A DNA stretch of 64,000 nucleotides, taken from Candidatus Altimarinota bacterium (lineage in GTDB: Bacteria; Patescibacteriota; Gracilibacteria; BD1-5; UBA2023). The notes under the pieces were generated by a model. It was not told where the DNA came from. It saw nothing but the letters and a program-made list of their open reading frames with translations, and ran no database searches. The position numbers were made by a program, and so were the translations under genes. Positions 2,979 through 32,628 of the stretch are shown here, piece by piece; within the stretch, counting starts at the first letter, position 1; every line of letters begins with the position of its first letter. The stretch is from positions 990 through 64,989 of the forward strand of contig JAYVJC010000042.1 of the NCBI GenBank assembly GCA_043769645.1, given 5' to 3'.

Positions 2979-4049
2979 ATGCGTTTTACCCTCACCTGCC
3001 AGTCATGACTCGAATCCCTCGTCCGACGAGAAACCGAACGACTCTGACTCACCGAACTCTCTGGTAGAGATCGAATGGTTTCGGCATCTGGAAGCGAGAA
3101 AAATATGTATGAACTCCTGATTTGGAGTCGATTTGCCAATCGCGTCTATCTCAATCTTCTGGAAGAGAAAATAGTGGATTTTGATGATTTATTTCGAAAG
3201 GTCTATGCTCTTGATTGGCAGAGATTTCTCGGCTCCGAGCTCCGGTATATCGTCGATGCTTCGAGTACTCGTTCTGTCCTCTCGAGTACTCCAGCTCTCC
3301 AGTCCGTCACGGAGCGAGCGATACAGGGAAAGCTCTCAAGAGACAATGGAAAATCTGAGGCTGAGATCCATGTCCTCGTCCTCGTCATCGATGATACCGT
3401 CCAAGTCCTCCTCGATATCACTGGAGAAGCCCTCCATAAACGAGGGTACCGACGAGAAGCTGGAGAAGCTCCTATCAAGGAAAATCTCGCCGCGGCCCTC
3501 GTCGCCTTCTCAGGGTGGAGGTATCGTGAATCCCTCCTTGACCCCTTCGCCGGGAGTGGGACCATCCCGATCGAGGCCGCGATGATGGCACGTAATATCG
3601 CTCCAGGACTCGAGCGGACCTTCCGCATCGAAGACCTCCCCTTCTACAGTATCGCGCTCCTTCGAGAATCCAAACTCGATGCGAAAGCAAAACAATACCC
3701 CAGTGGAGACTATACGCTCTTCGCTTCGGATATCGATACTGGGATGCTCGATATCGCTCGAGAGAATGCGAGGCGAGCTGGAGTCCTCGGTGATATCACA
3801 TTTGAAGCTCGGGATTTTCTCTCAACGGCAAGCCTTTCAAATACGAAATCTACCATCGTCACCAATCCTCCGTACGGAAAACGAATGGGAGGAGACCATC
3901 TTGAGGAAATATATATGAAACTTATTTCAGAAATCGCAGAAAATGGTGGTGGTTTTATCACCTCCTATGAACTTCTGAAGGATCACCACCTCGCCAATAA
4001 AAAACTCCTCAATGGAAATGAGGAGTGTCGGTTCTGGTATAGGAAATAG
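2979..4049 (+). CDS. THUMP-domain SAM-dependent RNA methyltransferase (RlmL/RlmK, COG0116-like)
   Basis: Track ORF 3075..4049 extends in frame (2 TGA=Gly) to ATG 2979. This gives a THUMP-type N-terminus MRFTLTCQSGLESLVRRETERLGL. DPFAGSGTIPIEA (SAM motif I) and NPPYG (motif IV) are present. Confidence 0.85.
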
Positions 4050-4261
4050 GCAATGTGTAGTTTCTTGATACTCTTATTTCTTGATTCTATGAGTGACAGT
4101 TTTTTTATAGAAAAAAGTATTGAAATAAAAACTTGTAGGTATTTTTAAAAGTCACAAAACAAAGTTTACATTTGATTTTCCTGAGAGAATTGATACTGTT
4201 ATTCTGGATTTCTGATTTGTACTAAAGTATACCTTCCGAGTTTAAGAATTTATTCATAAAT

Positions 4262-5725
4262 ATGAAGACAGCACTTGTGATATGATCTGGCATAAGTGGA
4301 CTGGCTATCGCTTGTTATCTTGCGAAGGCAGGCTATAAGGTGCAGCTATATGAGAAAAATAATCAACTCTGATGACGATCTGGCCTCTTCCAAGAAGCAT
4401 CATATACCTTCGATATGTGACCTTCATGGTATCTTATGCCTGAGATATTTGAAGAATTTTTTTCATATTTTTGAAAGAAAACATCTGACTACTATACGAG
4501 CGAAAAGCTTCATCCAGCATATCGGATATTTTTCTCTGATCAGGATTTTGTAGATATATCGACGAAACTCGAAGATAATATAGAGCTTTTTGAGATTCTA
4601 GAGCCATGAGCATGAGAAAGACTATTAGAATATATATCTATCGCAAAAGAGGAGTATGAAGTAGCAATAGGATCTTTGATCCAGAAGAATTATGATTCAT
4701 TCAGTGATTTATTTTCACTGAAGGGTCTCCGATTTATAGCAAAATTCAAAAATTTCATAAGCTATGAGTCATATGTAAGAAAATATTTCTCATCACCGAA
4801 ACTCCAGAAAATTCTCCTCTATACCTCTGTTTTTCTTGGCTGAAGTCCGAAAAATACACCCGCACTCTACTCACTCATCAACCACTGTGACTTCAATGAT
4901 GGGGTATACTTCCCAAAAGGCTGAATATATTCTCTAGTTCAAGCATTCGTATCTCTCGCAGAGGAGCTCTGAGTAGAGATGCATACGAATAGAGAAGTGA
5001 AGAAAATAATGATAGAAGATGGGAGAGCTCTATGAATAGAGCTCGAATCATGAGAAATACTCTGAAGTATCGTGGTATCAAGTGGCGACTATCACTATGC
5101 AGACCAGGTACTCATAGATCCAAAATATAGACAGTATACGCAGAAACAGTGGGATTCTATGACGCTTTCACCGAGTGGATTTATACTGTATCTCGGGATA
5201 CATAAGAAAATCCCAGCATTGCAGCATCATACGTTATTCTTTGATCCTGATTGGGATAATCATTTTGATTCTATATATAAGGATAAAACTCTTTGTGAGA
5301 CTCCCTCATACTATGTATCTTGCGTGAGTAAGACTGATACTTCAGTTGCTCCAGCTTGATGTGAAGCAGTATTTATTTTTGTGCCTACTGCTACATGACT
5401 CAAGCTGAGTGAGTGAGAGAAAAACAAGTATGCAGATAAGATTATCTCTGGACTTTCTCGAGCCATCTGAGAAGATCTTGCATGATGTATAGATATGCGG
5501 AGGATATACACCGGAGATGATTTTTCGAAGGATTATTTTGCCTTTGGAGGCAATGCTCTGGGTCTTGCCCATACTTTTAGGCAGACACTGACACTCAGAC
5601 CCAAGAATAAACATCCGAAAGTTTCTTGACTCTATTTCACTGGACACTATACAACGCCTGGAACGGGTATGCCGATGGTACTTATCTCATCGAAACTCGT
5701 AAAAGATAAAATTTTAGCAGACTAA
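4262..5725 (+). CDS. crtI: Phytoene desaturase
   Basis: ATG at 4262; the frame is open to TAA 5723-5725 with about 13 in-frame TGA. The N-terminus is MKTALVIGSGISGLAIACYLAKAGYKVQLYEKNNQLGGR...FDMGPSWY (FAD Rossmann fold plus CrtI signature, with TGA on the conserved Gly). Track ORF 5072..5359 is the middle of the gene. The C-terminus reads GLYFTGHYTTPGTGMPMVL. Confidence 0.9.
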
Positions 5726-18497: not shown

Positions 18498-19886
18498 ATG
18501 CCAGAAATGAAAGTACCAACATCAGTGAATGATCCTCTTGCTACTATGGGTGCTGAAGAAGAAAAGGAAATCATCCTCTGAACTATAAAGGATGAAGAAG
18601 ACCTCCACAGTGTTATCCTTTCGACGAAAAGTAAAACTGAGCATATTTCTCATGAGGAAGATTTTATCAAGCTCGCTGCTGCCATCCATGAGTGTTTACA
18701 ACGACAAGATAGTGAAGGAGCCCTTGCCCTCATGACGCGTGGAGCCCTCGCGATCGGTTCCTCAGATATCCACTACGATACTGGTGAGAAAAATATCGAC
18801 GTCCGGCTTCGTATCGATGGAGAGCTCTCAGTGATAATGACTCTCGAACCTCGCGAGTACAAGCTCATGCTCGAACGACTCAAGTACAAGTCGGATCTCA
18901 AGCTCAATATCACGGATATCCCTCAGGATGGAAAGTATCGAATCAGCGGAGAAAAAGGAAATATCGATGTACGTATCTCGACCCTCCCCGTGAAATACGG
19001 TGAAAATGCGGTCTGCCGAATACTTGACTCGACGAAGTCTATCCCGGGTCTTATCGAGCTCGGATTTATCTGGACGTCGAAGCGTCAGCTTGACCAGAGT
19101 GTGAAGAAAAAAAATGGAACCATCCTCGTCACGTGACCAACCGGAAGTGGTAAGACGACGACCCTTTATTCCCTCCTCCAGACGCTCAATACCCGTGAGA
19201 AAAAAATCATCACCCTCGAAGATCCGGTCGAATATGAAATCCCCGGCATCGTCCAGAGTGAGGTCAATGAGCTCAAAAACTATACCTACGCGACCGGACT
19301 CAAGGCCCTCCTGCGTCAGGATCCAGATATCATCATGATCGGGGAAATCCGAGATCTCGAGTCTGGGACGATCGCGATGCAGGCGGCGATGACCGGTCAC
19401 CTCGTCCTCTCGACCCTCCATACGAAGAGCTCGAGTGAGACGATCGAACGACTCATGAATATGGGGATTCCGAACTATATCCTCGCCTCGGGTATCGATA
19501 TCATCATCGCCCAGCGCCTCGTCAGGAAGCTCTGCCCTCACTGTATGACAGAGTATGAAGCAGACTCGGGAGAAATGGATATCATCAAATATATGCTCAA
19601 GGATATCGGTCTCGCGGGCTTCGTGACTCGCAAGGAACGCCACAAACTCTTCCGAGCCAATGGGTGTCTCGAGTGTGGGATGACCGGCTACAAAGGCCGT
19701 ATCGGTATCTACGAAGTGCTCTCCTTTTCCGAAGATATCCGCAGGATGGTACGAGACGGTGCCAGTCCAAATGACATCCTCGAAGCCTCTCGCAAGAACG
19801 GCCTCATCCTCATGCGAGAAGATGGGATTATGAAGGCAATGCGTGGGAAAACGACACTGGAGGAGTTATTTAAGGTGATAGAGTAA
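18498..19886 (+). CDS. Type II secretion / type IV pilus assembly ATPase (GspE/PilB family, short form)
   Basis: ATG 18498. Track ORFs 18732..19136 and 19335..19886 share the frame. Walker A reads VT-G(TGA 19134-19136)-PTGSGKTTT. Also present: the Asp box, Walker B IIMIGEIRD, the His box and a tetracysteine CPHC...CLEC. Confidence 0.9.
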
Positions 19887-27007: not shown

Positions 27008-28381
27008 ATGGATACCCTTCGATTTCTTACACCGGAGATGATTACTGATATTCGAAACCGTTTTGATACTCCCGTATTTATCTACTCGGAAAAAATCCTC
27101 CGAGAACAAGCGCGTAAGGTTGTCGGTTTTCCCCATCACTTTGGGATCACGACACGCTACGCGATGAAGACGAGTTCGAATATGAATCTGTTGAAGATTT
27201 TTTCGAGTGAATGACTCCATATCGATGCCTCGAGCGAGTATGAAGTCTATCGCGCGCTCAAAGCGGGAATATCAGCTTCCCATATCCAGCTCACGGGACA
27301 AGAAATGCCAAAAGATCTGAAGAAAATTGTCGATTTGGGTGTAGAGTTCAATGCGACGAGCCTACATCAACTCGAAAGCTATGGAAAGCTCTTTCCTGAT
27401 ACAAATGCATCTATCCGAGTGAATCCTGGTATGGGTTCATGAGGTACCAACCGTACCAATGTTGGAGGGCTCGGATCGAGCTTCGGTATCTGGCACGAAT
27501 ACCTCGAAGAAGTTCTGAGTATCACCAAAAAATATCATCTTACCATCACGAAGCTTCATACCCATATCGGTTCCGGATCAGATCCAGAAGTCTGGAAAAA
27601 AGTCGCTAGTATGGTCCTCTCGATCGTCGAGAAACTTCCTGATGTCATCACAGTTTCCCTCGGTGGAGGATACAAAATAGCTCGAATGGACTATGAAAAA
27701 ACTGCAAATCTTGAGGAAATCGGAACGCACGTAAAAGAGTTATTTTGGGATTTTTTCGAAAAAACTTGACGTAAACTCCATCTCGAAATCGAACCGGGCA
27801 CCTTTCTCGCCGCCAATAGTGCCAGTCTCATTACCGAGATCATCGATATCGTCGACACAGGAAAAGATGGTTATACCTTCATCAAGGTGAATGCCGGGAT
27901 GACCGAAGTCACACGTCCTTCGCTCTATGGCGCCCAACACCCGATCATCGTTGTTCCCAGGAGAAATAACTCGGAAGATACTCAAAAACAAGAAAATCGA
28001 GGAGAGAAATTTTTTTCGAAAGGAGTTTACTGAAACAATGTAAATGACTGAGAAATAAATTTTTCTGACGATGAAGTTCGCAGTTTTTCAGAATCTTCCT
28101 ACATAGTTGTCGGTCATAACTGCGAAAGTGGTGATATCTTCACTCCCGCCCCTGGAGACCCGGAGTGACTCCTTCCACGGACACTTACTGAAGCGAGAAT
28201 CGGATATGCACTCGTCATCGAATCCGTCGGCTCCTACTGCGCGTCGATGAGTACGCACGGATACAATAGCTTCCCCGAAGCCTGAGAACTCCTCCTTCGA
28301 GAAGATGGAACTATCGTCGAAATCAGAAAACGCGCGAAGATAGAAGAACTATGGAGGAATGAGATAATGGTAGCAGAATAG
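27008..28381 (+). CDS. lysA: PLP-dependent decarboxylase, diaminopimelate decarboxylase family
   Basis: Track ORF 27008..27214 continues in frame (about 6 TGA) to TAG 28379-28381. Motifs present: YAMKTSSN (PLP Lys), [26 protein letters not shown] and [15 protein letters not shown]. Confidence 0.85.
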
Positions 28382-28441
28382 TAATTTTACATTTAGAAGG
28401 AAGCTGCTTGTATCTCAAAAAAATCTCAACAGAATTTCGTA

Positions 28442-28469
28442 TTGACTTCCCTCCCTTTTTTCATACATT
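28442..28469 (+). promoter_or_regulatory. Candidate promoter TTGACT-N16-TACATT driving the leader region
   Basis: Good -35 and acceptable -10 hexamers. The first leader ATG lies only 8 nt downstream of the -10, so the transcript is near-leaderless. Confidence 0.45.
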
Positions 28470-28476
28470 CGAATCT

Positions 28477-28548
28477 ATGAATCACCTCGCTCACATGATT
28501 ATCATGAAGATTTGCTTTTCCCGAGTGGAAGAGAAGTTTTCTATGTAA
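28477..28548 (+). promoter_or_regulatory. Leader peptide ORF 1 (MNHLAHMIIMKICFSRVEEKFSM, TAA stop)
   Basis: 23-codon ORF with the cluster Met-Ile-Ile-Met-Lys-Ile. Its 3' part (28519-28533, TCCCGAGTGGAAGAG) is complementary (12 of 15) to the 5' arm region of terminator 1 (28568-28582). Confidence 0.55.
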
Positions 28549-28570
28549 TCAAATACAAGAAATCACTCTC

Positions 28571-28599
28571 AACCACCCGGGAAACTGGGTGGTTTTTTA
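28571..28599 (+). terminator. Attenuator terminator 1
   Basis: ACCACCCGG-GAAA-CTGGGTGGT stem-loop followed by a T6 run. Confidence 0.75.
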
Positions 28600-28612
28600 T
28601 TTATTTGAATCT

Positions 28613-28678
28613 ATGCATTACGAGCTTACTATCATGATTACCAAGAAGACGTATCCACCAAGAGCGGATTTTTGATGA
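28613..28678 (+). promoter_or_regulatory. Leader peptide ORF 2 (MHYELTIMITKKTYPPRADF followed by TGA TGA)
   Basis: It has the same GAATCTATG start context as leader 1. The codon run is Thr-Ile-Met-Ile-Thr-Lys-Lys-Thr. GAGCGGAT (28662-28669) is perfectly complementary to ATCCGCTC (28700-28707), the 5' arm of terminator 2. Confidence 0.55.
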
Positions 28679-28700
28679 GGAAAGCCTATCAAAACTACCA

Positions 28701-28725
28701 TCCGCTCAAAACTGGGCGGATTTTT
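28701..28725 (+). terminator. Attenuator terminator 2
   Basis: TCCGCTC-AAAACT-GGGCGGA stem (one G-T pair) followed by a T5 run. Confidence 0.7.
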
Positions 28726-28815
28726 CTTGGCTCAAGTATTCGGAACGAGCTATCGACTGATCGTCTTCGAGAAGCCTCTAAAAATTCCTTCTTTTTAATT
28801 TTTTACTTTTCTTCT

Positions 28816-30264
28816 ATGCTAACTCGAAACCACTATCAACATCACACTACTCCTCAACCATGAGCCATTCACGTTATCAAAGTCGGTGGCGAAAATGCCT
28901 CTGATAATCGCACTGCTGAATGGCTCGCTCAGGCACAATCCAGAGGAGAGGATATCGCCGTTGCCATATCGGCTCTCAGAACCAAACCACTCAATACGAC
29001 CAATGAACTCATCGAAGCACGGAATGCCTATAAAAGTGGAGGGATGGGTCTTGCTCTTCCTATTCTAGAAAATCTTTTTCGAGTTCACCTCGATACTCTC
29101 AGAGAAGCCAGTATGTACGATGGTGAACTGGAAGATAAACTGCGCTTATTATTTCAGCAATATTTTCCAGCTAATCTTTCATTTCCTACTGACTTACTCA
29201 AACAAGATCCCGATGTCGCCATGGAACAAAGATTCATCGGATATGGAGAGGTGATGTCCTCTCATGTGCTCCTACATTTACTAAGTACTCACTTTCGAGT
29301 GGCAAGTACCCTTCTGGATCATACCATCGATGCAGGAGAATCTGAGGAGAGAACTCTCTCAAGAATTCTCCGAGATGACGTAGGTTCGAGAGTACATTCG
29401 AGTCTCGCGCAAGGAATCGTCATCGTTCCTGGATACGTTTCTGTCAAAGAAAAAAGTCTTCTCTGAGCATATGGAAGAGGATATACCGATAAAACTGCGG
29501 AACGAATGGCAGTATGACTCAGGAAGTTAGGTCACTCCCCAATTCTCCACATACAGAAACAAGTAGCATTGCTCTCCTCCAATCCGGTTAATATTCCTGG
29601 CGTCTTACCTATCCATAATATCTCCTACTACTCGGCAGCGGAAATCACAGGTGCCCGCTGAGCCAACGCGAGAGTCCTCAATGAAAATACTATTTCCAAA
29701 GAACTCGCAGATTACGGTATTCCTATCTGGGTGTACAATCCGTTCGAAATAGATGGACCAAAAACTATCATTTCTCGCCAGGGGAATACGGAGTCAAAGG
29801 TGCTCTATGTTGATAACAGGGATCACGTCAATACTATAACTATTTCAGGTTTTGCTATGTCAGGTCCAGGCCTCCTTGCTCGGCTCACTAGTATTTTTAG
29901 CCAAAGATGAATATCTGTTGATACAATTTCATCATCAGAAACAGAGGTCACCTTTTCTACCTATGGAAGTATGTCTGAATTCGAAAAAACTTCACTCGCT
30001 GAAGTCCTCAAAACATCTCTCTGAGATGAATATGATGTAGAGGTGAAAAATAACCTATGACTCATATATTGTACTGGAGATAACCTTTCTGGAAACCCTG
30101 GACTGCTCGGAAGAATAGGAGCCATTCTTTCAAATGCTGGTATCGATGTCGAATGTATCTCACAATCCCGTGGACAAAGAGCCGTTACCATAGGAGTCGC
30201 GTCTGAGAGGCTTACCGAATGAACCAATATCCTCCATAGAGAGCTTATCGAAGAAAGAAACTAA
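28816..30264 (+). CDS. lysC: Aspartate kinase (amino-acid kinase domain plus two ACT domains)
   Basis: ATG 28816 lies within track ORF 28672..28863, and ORF 29044..29466 is in the same frame. There are about 8 TGA before TAA 30262-30264. Motifs: VIKVGGENAS (KFGG-like), GRGYTDKTA (GRGGSD-like) and ACT repeats (GLLARLTSIFSQRGISVD; GLLGRIGAILSNAGIDVE). Confidence 0.8.
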
Positions 30265-30306
30265 TTTTTGCCTTTTCCCCTCTTTTTTATATAGTGGAAG
30301 GGATTT

Positions 30307-30537
30307 ATGTGGGAAGAAAACCAAGATACACTCTCGAGAACATTTCTATTTGCTGATTTTACAGATGCGATGGCTTTTATCGTGAAAGTATGACTCCTCG
30401 CTGAGAAATCTGATCATCATCCTACCATTACCAATACCTATACCTCAGTACGTATCGAACTCACCACGCATGAAGCTGGCAATACGGTAACCACTCGAGA
30501 TAGAGAAATGTCTCAGATTATTGATTCTTTTTTATAA
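30307..30537 (+). CDS. Pterin-4-alpha-carbinolamine dehydratase (PCD/DCoH family)
   Basis: 76 aa with one TGA. The family signature SDHHPTITNTYTSVRIELTTHEAGNTVTTRD is present. Confidence 0.8.
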
Positions 30538-30540
30538 ACT

Positions 30541-32628
30541 ATGCCGACTCCAAACTACTCCAGTGAAACCCTCGATCGAATGCGCAAACTCGAGCGTATC
30601 CGTGCTCTTGGAGTGAATCCTTTTGCTACGCGATTCGATGCGAGTTCGAGTATCGGAGATATCCTCTTGAAGTATCCTTCCAGTATAGATCCGACACTCC
30701 AAGAATCCAAAAATACAATCTTTCGAACTATAGAAACTATTATCCCAGCTCCGACGGATGAAGTGGCTATCGCGGGTCGAGTGATGCTCCATCGAAGCTT
30801 CGGGAAGATCTGCTTCGCGACTATTTCTGATGGAACGGGACGACTGCAGGTACTGTTCTCAAGGGAGAATTGCTTTATCAACCTCACCCCTAACCCCTCT
30901 CCTGAAGGAGATGGGGATTCAGGAGCGGTCTCTTTACTCCCCCTCTCTGGAGGAGAGGGGGCTGGGGGGTGAGGTGGTGATGAAGTATCCGCCTACAAAT
31001 TCGCCGAGAAGCTCATCGACCTCGGGGATTTTATCGGGGTGCGGGGTGAGCTTTTTTATACGCATAAATGAGAACTCACACTCTTTGTGAAAGAGTTTAC
31101 CTTTCTTACGAAGGCGATTCGTCCCCTTCCTGAGAAATTCCACGGGATAGAAAATGAGGATGAACGATTTCGAAAGCGGTACCTCGATATGACTATGGAT
31201 GATGAGCTTCGTGCTGTATTCATACGAAAATCCAGATTCTGGAAAGCAACTCGAGATTTTCTCGTATCGAAGGGATTCCTCGAAGTCGAGACTCCGACCC
31301 TCGAGCATACGACCGGTGGAGCGGAAGCTCGACCATTTGCCACGCATCACAACGACTACGACGTCGATGTATTCCTACGTATATCGATCGGTGAGCTCTG
31401 GCAGAAACGTCTGATGGCCGGAGGATTTCCGAAGACCTTCGAAATCGGACGCGCCTATCGAAATGAGGGATCGAGTCCAGATCACCTACAAGAGTTTACC
31501 AATATGGAATTCTACTGGGGATATGCAAACTATGAGGCCGGGATGAAACTCGTCGAAGCCATGTACCGATATATCGCTATGGAAGTCTATGGAAAGACGG
31601 TATTCACCGCTAGAGGACATACCTTCGATCTCGCGAACGAGTGGTGACGCGTTGATTATGTGAGTGCAGTACTCGAGAAAACGGGTATTGATATCCTCTC
31701 GGCAACAGATGGTGAAATGCAACAAAAACTCACCGAGCTCGGGGTTAAGTATGATGGTACCAATCGGGAACGCCTCACCGATACGCTCTGGAAGTATACG
31801 AGAAAGCAGATCTCGGGACCCGCATTCCTGATCAACCATCCCTCTCTCATCTCACCTCTGGCGAAAACGAGTGAGAAAAATCCTGGAACCGTTGAACGGT
31901 TTCAGGTCATTCTAGGAGGATCCGAAATCGGAAATGGCTACAGTGAGCTCAATGACCCCCTCGAACAACGCGCTCGATTCGAGAAACAACAGGAGATGCT
32001 TGCGGCTTGAGATGACGAGGCGATGATGCCAGACTGGGATTTCGTCGAGATGCTCGAACACGGGATGCCTCCGACCTGCGGATTCGGATTCGGAGAACGA
32101 CTCTTTGCCTTTCTCGAGGATAAACCCATACGTGAAGTGCAGTACTTCCCATTTATGAAGCCAGTCGGAGAATCACTTTCCATCAAAGAATCTGAGGAAC
32201 GATACCGTTCCAAGAAGATTATCGTGATCGCTGATGAACATCATCCCGCAGGTCCTGGAGCTGTAGCGAATGCTATCGGACAACTCGGCATTGAGATCGG
32301 CATGTTTTCAGAAAACAAACTCGCAGAAACAAAGATCCTTCATGATGCCGATGGGCGTGTTCACTATGCGGATGCCTACTATGGGATGTCGAACCTCTCA
32401 GGAACTCACGAACAAATGGCACACTTTGTGATGAAATGTCATACAGCCAATATCCAAGTTTTTGATTTTTCAGAAATCATGAGAAAAGCTCACTCCGATA
32501 AGCAAATGCTCGAGGGATATAGGTGACTCTCGACCGAAGATATCAGTTATATTGCAGTTGGAGCTGTCATTCCTGCTGACTTCGAGAAAGAATGGCTCGC
32601 AGGACTTAAATTATTCGGGAAACAATAA
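30541..32628 (+). CDS. lysS: Lysine--tRNA ligase (class II) with an internal repeat insertion and a C-terminal extra domain
   Basis: Track ORFs 30541.., 31087.., 31660.. and 32023.. are all in one frame, separated by TGA. Motif 1/2/3 regions are present (FLEVETPTL; [26 protein letters not shown]; GFGFGERL). Stop is TAA 32626-32628. Confidence 0.95.
30882..30974. repeat. Palindromic G/C-clamp element inserted in frame in lysS (31 codons)
   Basis: The outer arms CCTCACCCCTAACCCCTCTCCT and AGGAGAGGGGGCTGGGGGGTGAGG are imperfect reverse complements. Two inner hairpins have the form CCCCTCTC-loop-GAGAGGGG. It is translated as [28 protein letters not shown]. Confidence 0.75.

Follow-up and report, generated by a model that had tools for sequence, protein, structure and literature searches.

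The 64,000-nucleotide stretch of Candidatus Altimarinota bacterium DNA analysed here (the window; contig JAYVJC010000042.1 of assembly GCA_043769645.1, positions 990 to 64,989) carries an aspartate kinase (AK) gene that is preceded by two short open reading frames (ORFs), each of which is associated with a terminator-like hairpin. Judged from the sequence, from its conservation in relatives and from a model of ribosome positions, the region between positions 28442 and 28815 is very probably a two-stage classical ribosome-mediated (leader-peptide) transcription attenuator. By the codons of the leaders, transcription of AK, and probably of the lysyl-tRNA synthetase (LysRS) gene that follows it, would depend on the charging of tRNA-Ile, tRNA-Thr and tRNA-Lys. 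An earlier note on this DNA had proposed two tandem ribosome-stalling attenuators controlling aspartokinase, and the conservation of the layout, the codon cluster and the ribosome-masking model described below support that proposal. The anatomy of the element, its conservation and synteny, the selection on its codons, its alternative pairings and their dependence on ribosome position, and the conservation of the frame of the second leader ORF were all computed.

The genetic code of the organism bears on the reading of the second leader. TGA is a sense codon in this genome (code 25, glycine); ORFs of at least 100 codons in the six frames total 164 kb with TAA and TAG as stops, compared with 58 kb under table 11. 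TGA accounts for 21% of the glycine codons in the 43 long ORFs of the window, and tandem TGA-TGA pairs occur 11 times in the 14.9k codons of the window genes.

Architecture of the two units

The gap between the upstream lysA-like gene and the AK gene is 434 nt long and contains a promoter, leader ORF 1, terminator 1, leader ORF 2 and terminator 2 (Table 1). The two units form a direct (tandem) repeat of roughly 136 nt, and the same start context, GAATCTATG, precedes both ATG codons. The promoter, this shared context, leader ORF 1 ending in TAA, both terminators with their T-runs, and the perfect complementarity of GAGCGGAT to ATCCGCTC were all read in the earlier note and are present at the positions listed. 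The first antiterminator was given there as a pairing of 28519-28533 with 28568-82 (12 of 15 positions); the complementarity is present and is slightly longer than stated, extending over 28517-28534 and 28567-28584. The downstream gene is an aspartokinase, as had been claimed, with an AA_kinase domain, two ACT domains and full-length matches to the NCBIfam aspartate kinase models.

Table 1 Features of the attenuator region and of the neighbouring genes (positions are those of the window)
Feature	Position	Strand	Description
Promoter, sigma-70 type	28442..28469	+	TTGACT (28442-47), 16-nt spacer, TACATT (28464-69)
Leader ORF 1	28477..28548	+	MNHLAHMIIMKICFSRVEEKFSM, ends in TAA (28546-48)
Unit 1 regulatory codons	28495..28512	+	ATG ATT ATC ATG AAG ATT (M I I M K I)
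Antiterminator 1 (2:3), predicted	28517..28584	+	28517-28534 pairs with 28567-28584; 15/18 complementary
Terminator 1, predicted	28571..28600	+	AACCACCCGG-GAAA-CTGGGTGGTT then T6; hairpin 28571-28594, 10 bp
Leader ORF 2	28613..28798	+	61 codons (code 25): MHYELTIMITKKTYPPRADF-G(TGA)-G(TGA)-GKPIKTTIRSKLGGFFLAQVFGTSYRLIVFEKPLKIPSF, ends in TAA
Unit 2 regulatory codons	28628..28651	+	ACT ATC ATG ATT ACC AAG AAG ACG (T I M I T K K T)
Antiterminator 2, predicted	28662..28707	+	GAGCGGAT (28662-69) pairs with ATCCGCTC (28700-07); TGATGA in the apical stem
TGA TGA in frame	28673..28678	+	Gly-Gly under code 25
Terminator 2, predicted	28700..28726	+	ATCCGCTCA-AAAC-TGGGCGGAT then T5; hairpin 28700-28721, 9 bp; inside ORF 2, encodes ..IRSKLGGFF
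ORF 2 C-terminal conserved motif	28736..28774	+	VFGTSYRLIVFEK (consensus IFGTxFRLIVF[E/D]K)
Aspartate kinase (AK)	28816..30264	+	Proposed regulated gene; AA_kinase and two ACT domains
Lysyl-tRNA synthetase (LysRS)	30541..32628	+	Pfam tRNA-synt_2, tRNA_anti-codon, DUF2000 (C-terminal)
lysA-like gene (diaminopimelate-decarboxylase-like)	27008..28381	+	Context only, outside the switch; Pfam Orn_Arg_deC_N, Orn_DAP_Arg_deC
Promoter-like sequence	30268-30295		TTGCCT-N16-TATAGT, ahead of the PCD and LysRS genes
Pterin-4a-carbinolamine dehydratase (PCD) gene	30307-30537		76 aa; Pfam Pterin_4a, E = 2.6e-22; in the 276-nt AK-LysRS gap

The -10 box ends 7 nt before the first ATG in the window. Because this distance is only 6-7 nt, the transcript is probably leaderless, with its start at or beside the AUG of ORF 1. 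Leader ORF 1 is homologous to the leaders of 16-17 codons that are found in relatives. Its regulatory codons form strand 1 of a 1:2 protector hairpin (28496-28551), and antiterminator 1 overlaps the 5' arm and the loop of terminator 1. The predicted antiterminator has a folding energy of -26.9 kcal/mol (z = -4.2) and is the best duplex available to the 5' arm of terminator 1 (p = 0.03 against shuffles), while terminator 1 itself folds at -17.8 kcal/mol (z = -5.0). In the minimum free energy fold of unit 1 without a ribosome, 28496-28516 pairs with 28530-28551 and terminator 1 forms as well (z = -4.0 for the whole unit). Three stem pairs of terminator 1 are unlike those of the relatives (CCTCTCCGA/TCGGAGAGG) and pairing is retained in all three (our own sequence comparison).

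Unit 2 repeats this arrangement with a longer ORF, which spans terminator 2 and ends 17 nt 5' of the AK start. All eight residues of its regulatory window belong to the set Ile, Thr, Lys and Met, the chance of which is ~7e-6 per eight-residue window. Terminator 2 (-13.3 kcal/mol, z = -5.1) is less stable than antiterminator 2 (-20.5 kcal/mol, z = -6.3, p < 0.002 against shuffles). Inspection by eye for a promoter belonging to unit 2 yielded at best a poor -10 box, and a -35 box was not seen. Terminator-like sites are frequent in the window (37, compared with 15.9 +/- 4.1 in shuffles), and terminators 1 and 2 rank second and third among those in 20 kb.

A comparison of start contexts revealed no Shine-Dalgarno motif upstream of the window genes. 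In the genes at 18498 and 52274, among others, a TATAxT box stands exactly 6 nt 5' of the ATG, and the upstream regions of the window genes are rich in T and A. The short distance between the -10 box and the ATG in several genes, together with the missing Shine-Dalgarno motif, makes leaderless initiation plausible, and leaderless, Shine-Dalgarno-independent initiation may be a rule in this genome.

Regulatory codons

The codon cluster was compared across 32 units, which encode 28 distinct peptides. In nearly all of them the best eight-residue window contains seven or eight Ile, Thr or Lys residues; the exceptions are unit 1 of the window, with four (six if Met is counted), and unit 1 of locus L017 and unit 2 of locus L007, with six each. 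Given a background frequency of 20% for Ile, Thr and Lys together, the chance of at least seven in eight is ~9e-5 per window. Codon differences between orthologous unit 1 windows comprise 117 synonymous changes, 64 changes within the set {I,T,K} and 81 that involve another residue, the last group lying for the most part in codon eight of the window, a position that already belongs to a helix. The Ile/Thr/Lys cluster is therefore maintained through synonymous and within-set changes. The earlier note had listed Met with Ile, Lys and Thr among the regulatory codons. Ile, Thr and Lys are indeed conserved; Met occurs in the cluster essentially only in the window, so that Met sensing by these leaders is doubtful.

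The choice of codon within the leaders is also skewed. Lys is encoded by AAG 54 times and by AAA once in the 32 leader windows, compared with 347 AAG and 568 AAA codons in the window genes, and Ile is encoded by ATC or ATT 87 times and by ATA once. This skew could result from pairing with a U-rich opposite strand or from the sensing of one tRNA isoacceptor. When both strands of the 64-kb window were scanned for a short ORF that has at least six of eight residues drawn from {I,T,K,M} and a hairpin with a T-run behind it, these two units and one unrelated site were the only matches. The arrangement is not due to chance.

Alternative pairings and ribosome position

For every one of the 27 units compared, nt 43-60 of the leader ORF supply the best upstream partner for the 5' arm of the terminator (each p <= 0.06 against shuffles), and this position holds across four stem-sequence classes. 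Segment 2 and the terminator 5' arm read TCGGATAGGT and ACCTCTCCGA in unit 1 of the relatives, CCCGAGTGG and CCACCCGGG in unit 1 of the window, GAGCGGAT and ATCCGCTC in unit 2, and CGGAAAGGC and GCCCTTCCG in locus L011.

To model the effect of the ribosome, 27 nt were masked around each A-site position and the equilibrium probability of the terminator hairpin, P(terminator), was computed. In unit 1 of the window the predicted P(terminator) is 0.06-0.45 while one of codons 7-11 (MIIMK) occupies the A site, and 0.80-0.97 for all other codons. In unit 2 it is 0.02-0.04 with the A site at any position up to codon 11 (Lys-11) and 0.46-0.61 thereafter. The trough likewise falls on the Ile/Thr/Lys codons in both units of L010 and in L001. 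Folding with and without masking of the leaders had been suggested in the earlier note as a check; it yields the alternative helices, and in both window units the terminator is predicted to be lost only when the ribosome is placed on the regulatory codons.

Covariation was analysed for both units. In the RNAalifold consensus of unit 2 the regulatory codons (TCATCA..) pair with the TGA run (..TGATGA), and four of the eight pairs are doubly changed, as in L006, where ACC stands opposite TGG. The stem of terminator 2 is conserved in 14 loci and includes one compensatory pair (U-A to A-U). Across both helices 90.5% of the cells are paired, compared with 27-56% in slid controls, and there are 15 double-change cells; none of 500 shuffles reaches the observed score, which is to be read with the caveat that the sequences are related. 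Support for unit 1 comes from conservation, energetics and the comparison between stem classes.

Conservation in relatives and identity of the probable target genes

Loci from relatives were gathered from the DNA around AK relatives, from a metagenome scan with a leader 17-mer and from matches to the ORF 2 peptide. Relatives of this AK are scarce, with only ~20 at E < 1e-10 among 5.8 billion clusters (35-63% identical), and those that carry an organism name are Candidatus Gracilibacteria. A metagenome scan with an alignment of the AK protein gave no matches, and the scan with the 17-mer TCTCCAMTCGGATAGGT returned 70 stretches, five of them real and the remainder chance. The element was found in ~18 distinct loci, from Gracilibacteria metagenome-assembled genomes (MAGs; JANNYQ01, JAYVUT01, JANMWJ01, JABFSX01 and JAGORX01) and from metagenome contigs (JGI, ENA and Logan). 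Two units are present in 14 distinct loci, the window included, and one unit in L001-L003 and L016.

All 17 other loci for which upstream sequence is available carry TTGACT-N16-TA(T/C)A(T/C)T at a distance of 6-7 nt on the 5' side of the leader ATG. The leader of the relatives has the consensus M..(R)TIIT(K/I)K(I/T)(I/S)SPLG-TAG and is followed by a hairpin, CCTCTCCGA…TCGG(A/G)GAGG, and then a T-run. This layout is kept upstream of AK in relatives whose AK is only 51-63% identical. In L011, a TGA-sense locus with the gene order AK-asd and an AK that is 35% identical, the leader MSVAFTTKTKKTTFPQRKGIFL is followed by a stop codon and by its own matched antiterminator and terminator. The earlier note had looked to conservation and covariation in relatives to decide the matter: the leader and the stems are conserved in ~18 loci and unit 2 covaries, and for unit 1 the covariation is nil.

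The genes upstream of the element vary by locus (lysA, PHO4, HxlR or unknown), and some lie on the other strand. Downstream, most loci have AK followed by LysRS within about 50-270 nt; in L089 (GCA_018062665.1) the leader is followed by asd-lysA-hom, and in L043 by a gene for a 93-aa unknown protein and then LysRS, with no AK. Apart from one exception that has no explanation (L066, described below), the element is thus a mark of aspartate-family genes and LysRS. The earlier assignment of aspartokinase as the target stands as far as AK is concerned. Because LysRS follows AK in the relatives and the leader of L043 precedes LysRS in the absence of AK, the target is likely to be the AK-LysRS gene pair and not a lysC-type gene alone.

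A small conserved unit of another kind separates the PHO4 phosphate-transporter gene from the leader promoter in L002 (3732-3825), L007 (~2540-2640), L008 and L082. It has its own TTGACT…TATACT promoter, the sequence GACCAATGCCGTTCAA(A)TCATT(T/C)GTCTGAAA, a GC-rich hairpin and a T-run, and may represent a small RNA or a further short leader.

Predicted translation of leader ORF 2 through its terminator

As TGA encodes glycine here, leader ORF 2 contains no stop codon ahead of its terminator. The earlier note pointed out that read-through of TGA TGA would carry the ribosome across terminator 2 to the TAA at 28796-98, and comparison of the relatives agrees with this. One open frame is present in 14 of the 14 two-unit loci, comprising an ATG, one to three TGA codons, the hairpin (..RS..(S/G)GFF) and the motif [IV]FGTx[FY][RQK][LIM]I[VI]F[ED]K; its length with TGA read as glycine is 56-77 codons. 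The other two frames are open in only nine of the 14 loci each. The motif starts at codon 40, 41, 42, 43 or 45, and since the frame is kept throughout, several in-frame insertions or deletions must have occurred. L017 has gained one nucleotide in the hairpin loop and lost one after the T-tract, so that the frame is restored.

The motif shows a protein-coding pattern. Pairwise differences over its 42-nt stretch are distributed 79/67/235 by codon position, and the ratio of synonymous to non-synonymous differences is 154:129 in the ORF 2 frame, compared with 10:258 and 14:251 in the other frames. The C-terminal motif of ORF 2 is under codon-level purifying selection. Its conserved glycine is encoded by TGA in L043. 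If ORF 2 is translated through terminator 2, its product would contain ..GGFFLAQVFGTSYR... The peptide family is small, with only seven members in a profile search of 1.84 billion representative proteins.

Two other origins for the conserved peptide were considered and rejected. A separate third ORF that begins at an ATG or TTG after the T-tract is not a sufficient explanation, as neither L017 nor L043 offers an ATG, GTG or TTG in frame between T-tract and motif and L017 carries the compensating +1/-1 changes; an internal start at this place may exist in the other 12 two-unit loci. The frame from the ATG inside TGATGA, which in the window and L005 continues into AK, has at most 14 synonymous compared with ~250 non-synonymous differences.

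The public AK model of L005 (P0009, 512 aa; 3001-4539) is over-extended at its 5' end in just this way, starting from the ATG inside TGATGA and crossing terminator 2 in the wrong frame; a frame of the same type is open in the window (28675-30264). Two near-identical contigs, L012 and L013 (JGI 3300046313 and 3300046096), differ by an 11-nt insertion or deletion in the ORF 2 motif, which causes a frameshift and a truncated ORF 2 in L012. This may be a population variant without the peptide or an assembly error.

In nine of the 14 loci, read by eye, the ORF 2 stop codon lies 9-17 nt before the next start codon or overlaps it. Elsewhere it has been proposed that ribosome re-initiation accounts for a peak in the ends of leader genes at 10-11 bp upstream of genes (PMC4833913). 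It is conceivable, although we regard it as rather doubtful, that ORF 2 is a leader with three serial functions: the sensing of Ile, Thr and Lys, a stop-less passage through the terminator with the UGA run as a timing or pause element, and a cis-acting peptide or the delivery of ribosomes. If so, the stop-less passage would be possible only by the reassignment of UGA to glycine, with the UGA run replacing a stop codon. The IFGTxFRLIVFEK segment would then be an arrest or sensor peptide (as in TnaC, SpeFL and SecM) or would deliver ribosomes to a start that lacks a Shine-Dalgarno sequence, adding one translational layer on top of two transcriptional ones.

Proposed mechanism

In the attenuation scheme set out here we infer the transcription start site, the actual termination and stalling, the response to amino acids and the coupling role of ORF 2. 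Transcription would begin at the first ATG or an adjacent nucleotide and yield a leaderless mRNA. The first stage is predicted to have three mutually exclusive helices: 1:2 (28496-28516 with 28530-28551), 2:3 (28517-34 with 28567-84) and 3:4 (28571-94 followed by T6). A ribosome stalled on MIIMK would keep strand 1 melted, strand 2 would capture the 5' arm of the terminator and the polymerase would continue. A ribosome that reaches the stop codon would cover strand 2 and allow terminator 1 to form. With no ribosome present, 1:2 and 3:4 would both form and transcription would terminate. The second stage would repeat the test with ORF 2 (TIMITKKT, segment GAGCGGAT and terminator 2), and as the two read-through probabilities would multiply a steeper response is expected. 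On read-through transcripts ORF 2 would be translated across the hairpin and the 13-residue motif to a stop codon beside the regulated gene, and in this genome, which lacks Shine-Dalgarno sites, its translation would probably also supply that gene with ribosomes.

Several observations weigh against this scheme. Unit 1 of the window is the least typical of the units, with four Ile/Thr/Lys residues and two Met residues, a stop codon displaced by seven codons and a different pairing register. Unit 1 gives no covariation, its stems being nearly invariant in the relatives and the window copy lying one register off. In the masking model unit 2 of L009 is flat at 0.69, and unit 1 of L009 and the unit of L011 give weak responses. 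In L066 the leader precedes a Peptidase_M23 gene, with no obvious link to amino-acid supply, which is followed by the gene for an 87-aa homologue of the unknown protein of L043. The ORF 2 peptide has no match in Pfam, and the AlphaFold2 (AF2) prediction for it is of low confidence (pLDDT 51, pTM 0.19). Lastly, a leader ORF without a stop codon should strand ribosomes on non-stop RNA after termination.

Alternative explanations

The TGA run of unit 2 might itself be a decoding signal added to the attenuator, either as a pseudo-stop, where slow reading by tRNA-Gly(UCA) would keep the ribosome over segment 2 and behind the polymerase, or as a sensor of Gly-tRNA(UCA). One to three in-frame TGA codons are kept in all 14 two-unit loci although TGA provides only 21% of the glycine codons and the GGN codons are synonymous, and the equivalent position of unit 1 is a real stop codon. 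The masking model is also compatible with such a role: a ribosome on TGA TGA covers segment 2 and leaves the terminator free, and one five codons further on would occlude the hairpin. However, TGATGA is complementary to ATC ATC A and four of the eight pairs covary, which explains the nucleotide conservation in another way; TGA is a common codon that occurs in tandem elsewhere in the window genes and also lies within the conserved motif of ORF 2; and the repression of AK on glycine starvation has no obvious logic. A decoding signal is unlikely on this evidence. The sensing of tRNA-Gly(UCA) by unit 2, raised in the earlier note, is not needed, because TGATGA pairs and covaries with the Ile and Thr codons ATC ATC AC.

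Alternatively, ORF 2 could be the gene of a small protein and unit 1 the sole attenuator, in which case terminator 2 would be intragenic and suppressed by translation, and stalling would raise termination (polarity). ORF 2 is conserved, with selection at the amino-acid level in its C-terminal part, and is annotated as a hypothetical protein in MAGs; the close relatives L001-L003 lack unit 2, and a ribosome past about codon 26 occludes the hairpin in the masking model. Yet the N-terminal part of ORF 2 carries the Ile/Thr/Lys cluster of leader 1, and its regulatory codons pair with the TGA run as in the 1:2 protector helix. All 14 loci have a segment 2 that is complementary to the 5' arm of the terminator (z as low as -6.3), an arrangement that would be purposeless under polarity, and the structure predicted for the product is of low confidence (pLDDT 51). 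We consider the small-protein explanation quite improbable.

It is far less probable still that the hairpins are ordinary terminators of the upstream gene, of small genes or of small RNAs, with short ORFs that arose by chance and no response to amino acids. With TAA and TAG as the only stops, short ORFs are common, and formal covariation of unit 1 is absent; against this, a conserved promoter separates the upstream gene from leader 1, the upstream genes differ by locus and are sometimes on the opposite strand, and the downstream genes belong to the aspartate family or encode LysRS. The Ile/Thr/Lys cluster and the position of the stop codon are also kept through many nucleotide changes, and the window-wide scan finds the combination of features only here. 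A leader RNA that binds a metabolite or a tRNA (a lysine riboswitch or a T-box), or an attenuator bound by a protein, is likewise highly improbable. In other phyla lysine riboswitches often control lysC and T-boxes often control tRNA synthetase genes (PMC1262725). The Lysine and T-box families are absent from 28250-28950 both at the Rfam gathering threshold and at E <= 10, the units are too short (~120 nt) and have no conserved core outside the helices described, and conservation follows the codons.

Comparison with known attenuators

Three of the features that define a classical attenuator are present: a cluster of end-product codons, a predicted intrinsic terminator and an antiterminator that excludes it. 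A stop codon before the terminator is found in unit 1 (TAA 28546-48) and in none of the 14 second units, which makes unit 2 a variant of the classical form. The closest known system is the enterobacterial thr leader. It shares with thrL a short ORF with Thr and Ile codons, alternative 1:2, 2:3 and 3:4 helices with an intrinsic terminator and an aspartokinase as the first of the regulated genes, and here too several end products would be sensed. The present element differs in that Lys codons belong to the set, the transcript is probably leaderless, two units stand in series, the host is a code-25 member of the candidate phyla radiation (CPR), a LysRS gene follows AK and no Rfam model includes it. 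In Proteobacteria and Actinobacteria, attenuators of the trp, his, phe, leu and ilv type work by the principle proposed here, in which the position of the ribosome on the regulatory codons selects the antiterminator or the terminator. Classical leaders stop before or inside segment 2, whereas leader 2 here crosses the terminator into a conserved peptide.

Rfam models match only two tRNAs at the gathering threshold in the whole window. The best matches below threshold include Phe_leader, Thr_leader and His_leader at 17-27 bits. In the window Phe_leader (RF01859) scores 25.4 bits against a threshold of 55 and His_leader (RF00514) 17.0 against 49; Thr_leader (RF00506) scores 24.7 against 55 in L010 and has no match in the window. 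The similarity to Phe_leader and His_leader reflects shared architecture. Sub-threshold matches to mir-7 and to small-RNA families (E <= 10) reflect only the long antiterminator hairpin and were set aside.

In E. coli, the aminoacyl-tRNA synthetase genes pheST are preceded by an attenuator. Riboswitches and T-boxes also occur as tandem sensors, and as in those cases two full sensor-terminator units stand in series here, from which a sharper response would be expected; the sensors in the present element are translated leader ORFs and not ligand- or tRNA-binding RNAs. To our knowledge, no attenuator with Lys codons has been described for lysS. Leader attenuators have been predicted before trpS and leuS in Streptomyces (PMC1262725). 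Like the synthetase attenuators, the element described here contains codons for the amino acid of the synthetase itself (AAG AAG before LysRS in L043, and before AK-LysRS elsewhere); it differs in that the leader is common to biosynthetic genes and mixes Ile, Thr and Lys codons. In mycobacteria, leaderless polycysteine short ORFs act as Cys-responsive attenuators according to the titles and abstracts of the reports (bioRxiv 10.1101/834739; PMC4633059). On that level of comparison both systems have a regulatory short ORF upstream of amino-acid-related operons, on a transcript that begins at the AUG in mycobacteria and probably does so here; the present one belongs to another phylum, concerns other amino acids and has clear predicted terminators and antiterminators in tandem.

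The earlier note was aware of no description of attenuation of this kind in the CPR, which agrees with our literature search, in which no paper linking attenuation with Patescibacteria or Gracilibacteria was found. What appears to be new is the combination of a CPR host, a mixed Ile/Thr/Lys set with Lys codons before LysRS, a probably leaderless start and the tandem layout. Foremost among the new features would be a leader ORF that crosses its own terminator by way of reassigned UGA codons and ends in a conserved peptide.

The usual picture of CPR (Patescibacteria) is one of minimal biosynthesis and little known gene regulation. A lineage within the Gracilibacteria appears to keep AK, asd, lysA, hom and LysRS under an attenuator of textbook type, in tandem duplicate, which offers a concrete and testable regulatory element in organisms that at present cannot be cultured alone. 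The conserved regulon may also serve as a sequence clue to the amino acids that these organisms still make or monitor. The element can further be viewed as a natural experiment on a change of genetic code: the 1:2 helix needs the complement of AUC AUC (…UGAUGA…), which under the standard code is the end of the leader, and with UGA read as glycine the leader would run on through the terminator and has gained a conserved peptide. For annotation, ORF 2, whose homologues are called hypothetical proteins in Gracilibacteria MAGs or are absorbed into over-extended AK models such as P0009, would be better described as part of the leader.

Neighbouring genes

The lysA-like protein scores 241 bits against the NCBIfam lysA model, which is under the curated cut-off. 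The AK proteins of the window and of L010 share an N-terminal extension, MLTRNHYQHHTT; this extra segment, M(L/V)TR(N/Q)HYQHHTT…, is encoded at 28816-28872 in the window. An MLTR… start also opens the unknown proteins of 87-93 aa that stand in the place of AK in L043 (3269-3551) and L066 (1649-1913), which suggests a rearrangement or fusion at this junction.

The promoter-like sequence between AK and the PCD gene has near-identical counterparts after AK in L005 and L017, where it lies 5' of a different, hydrophobic ORF of 69 aa. The LysRS gene of the window may have in it an additional promoter that is independent of the leader. The LysRS proteins of the window (695 aa) and of L005 (671 aa) carry a C-terminal DUF2000 domain, and those of most relatives are 528-555 aa long and lack it.

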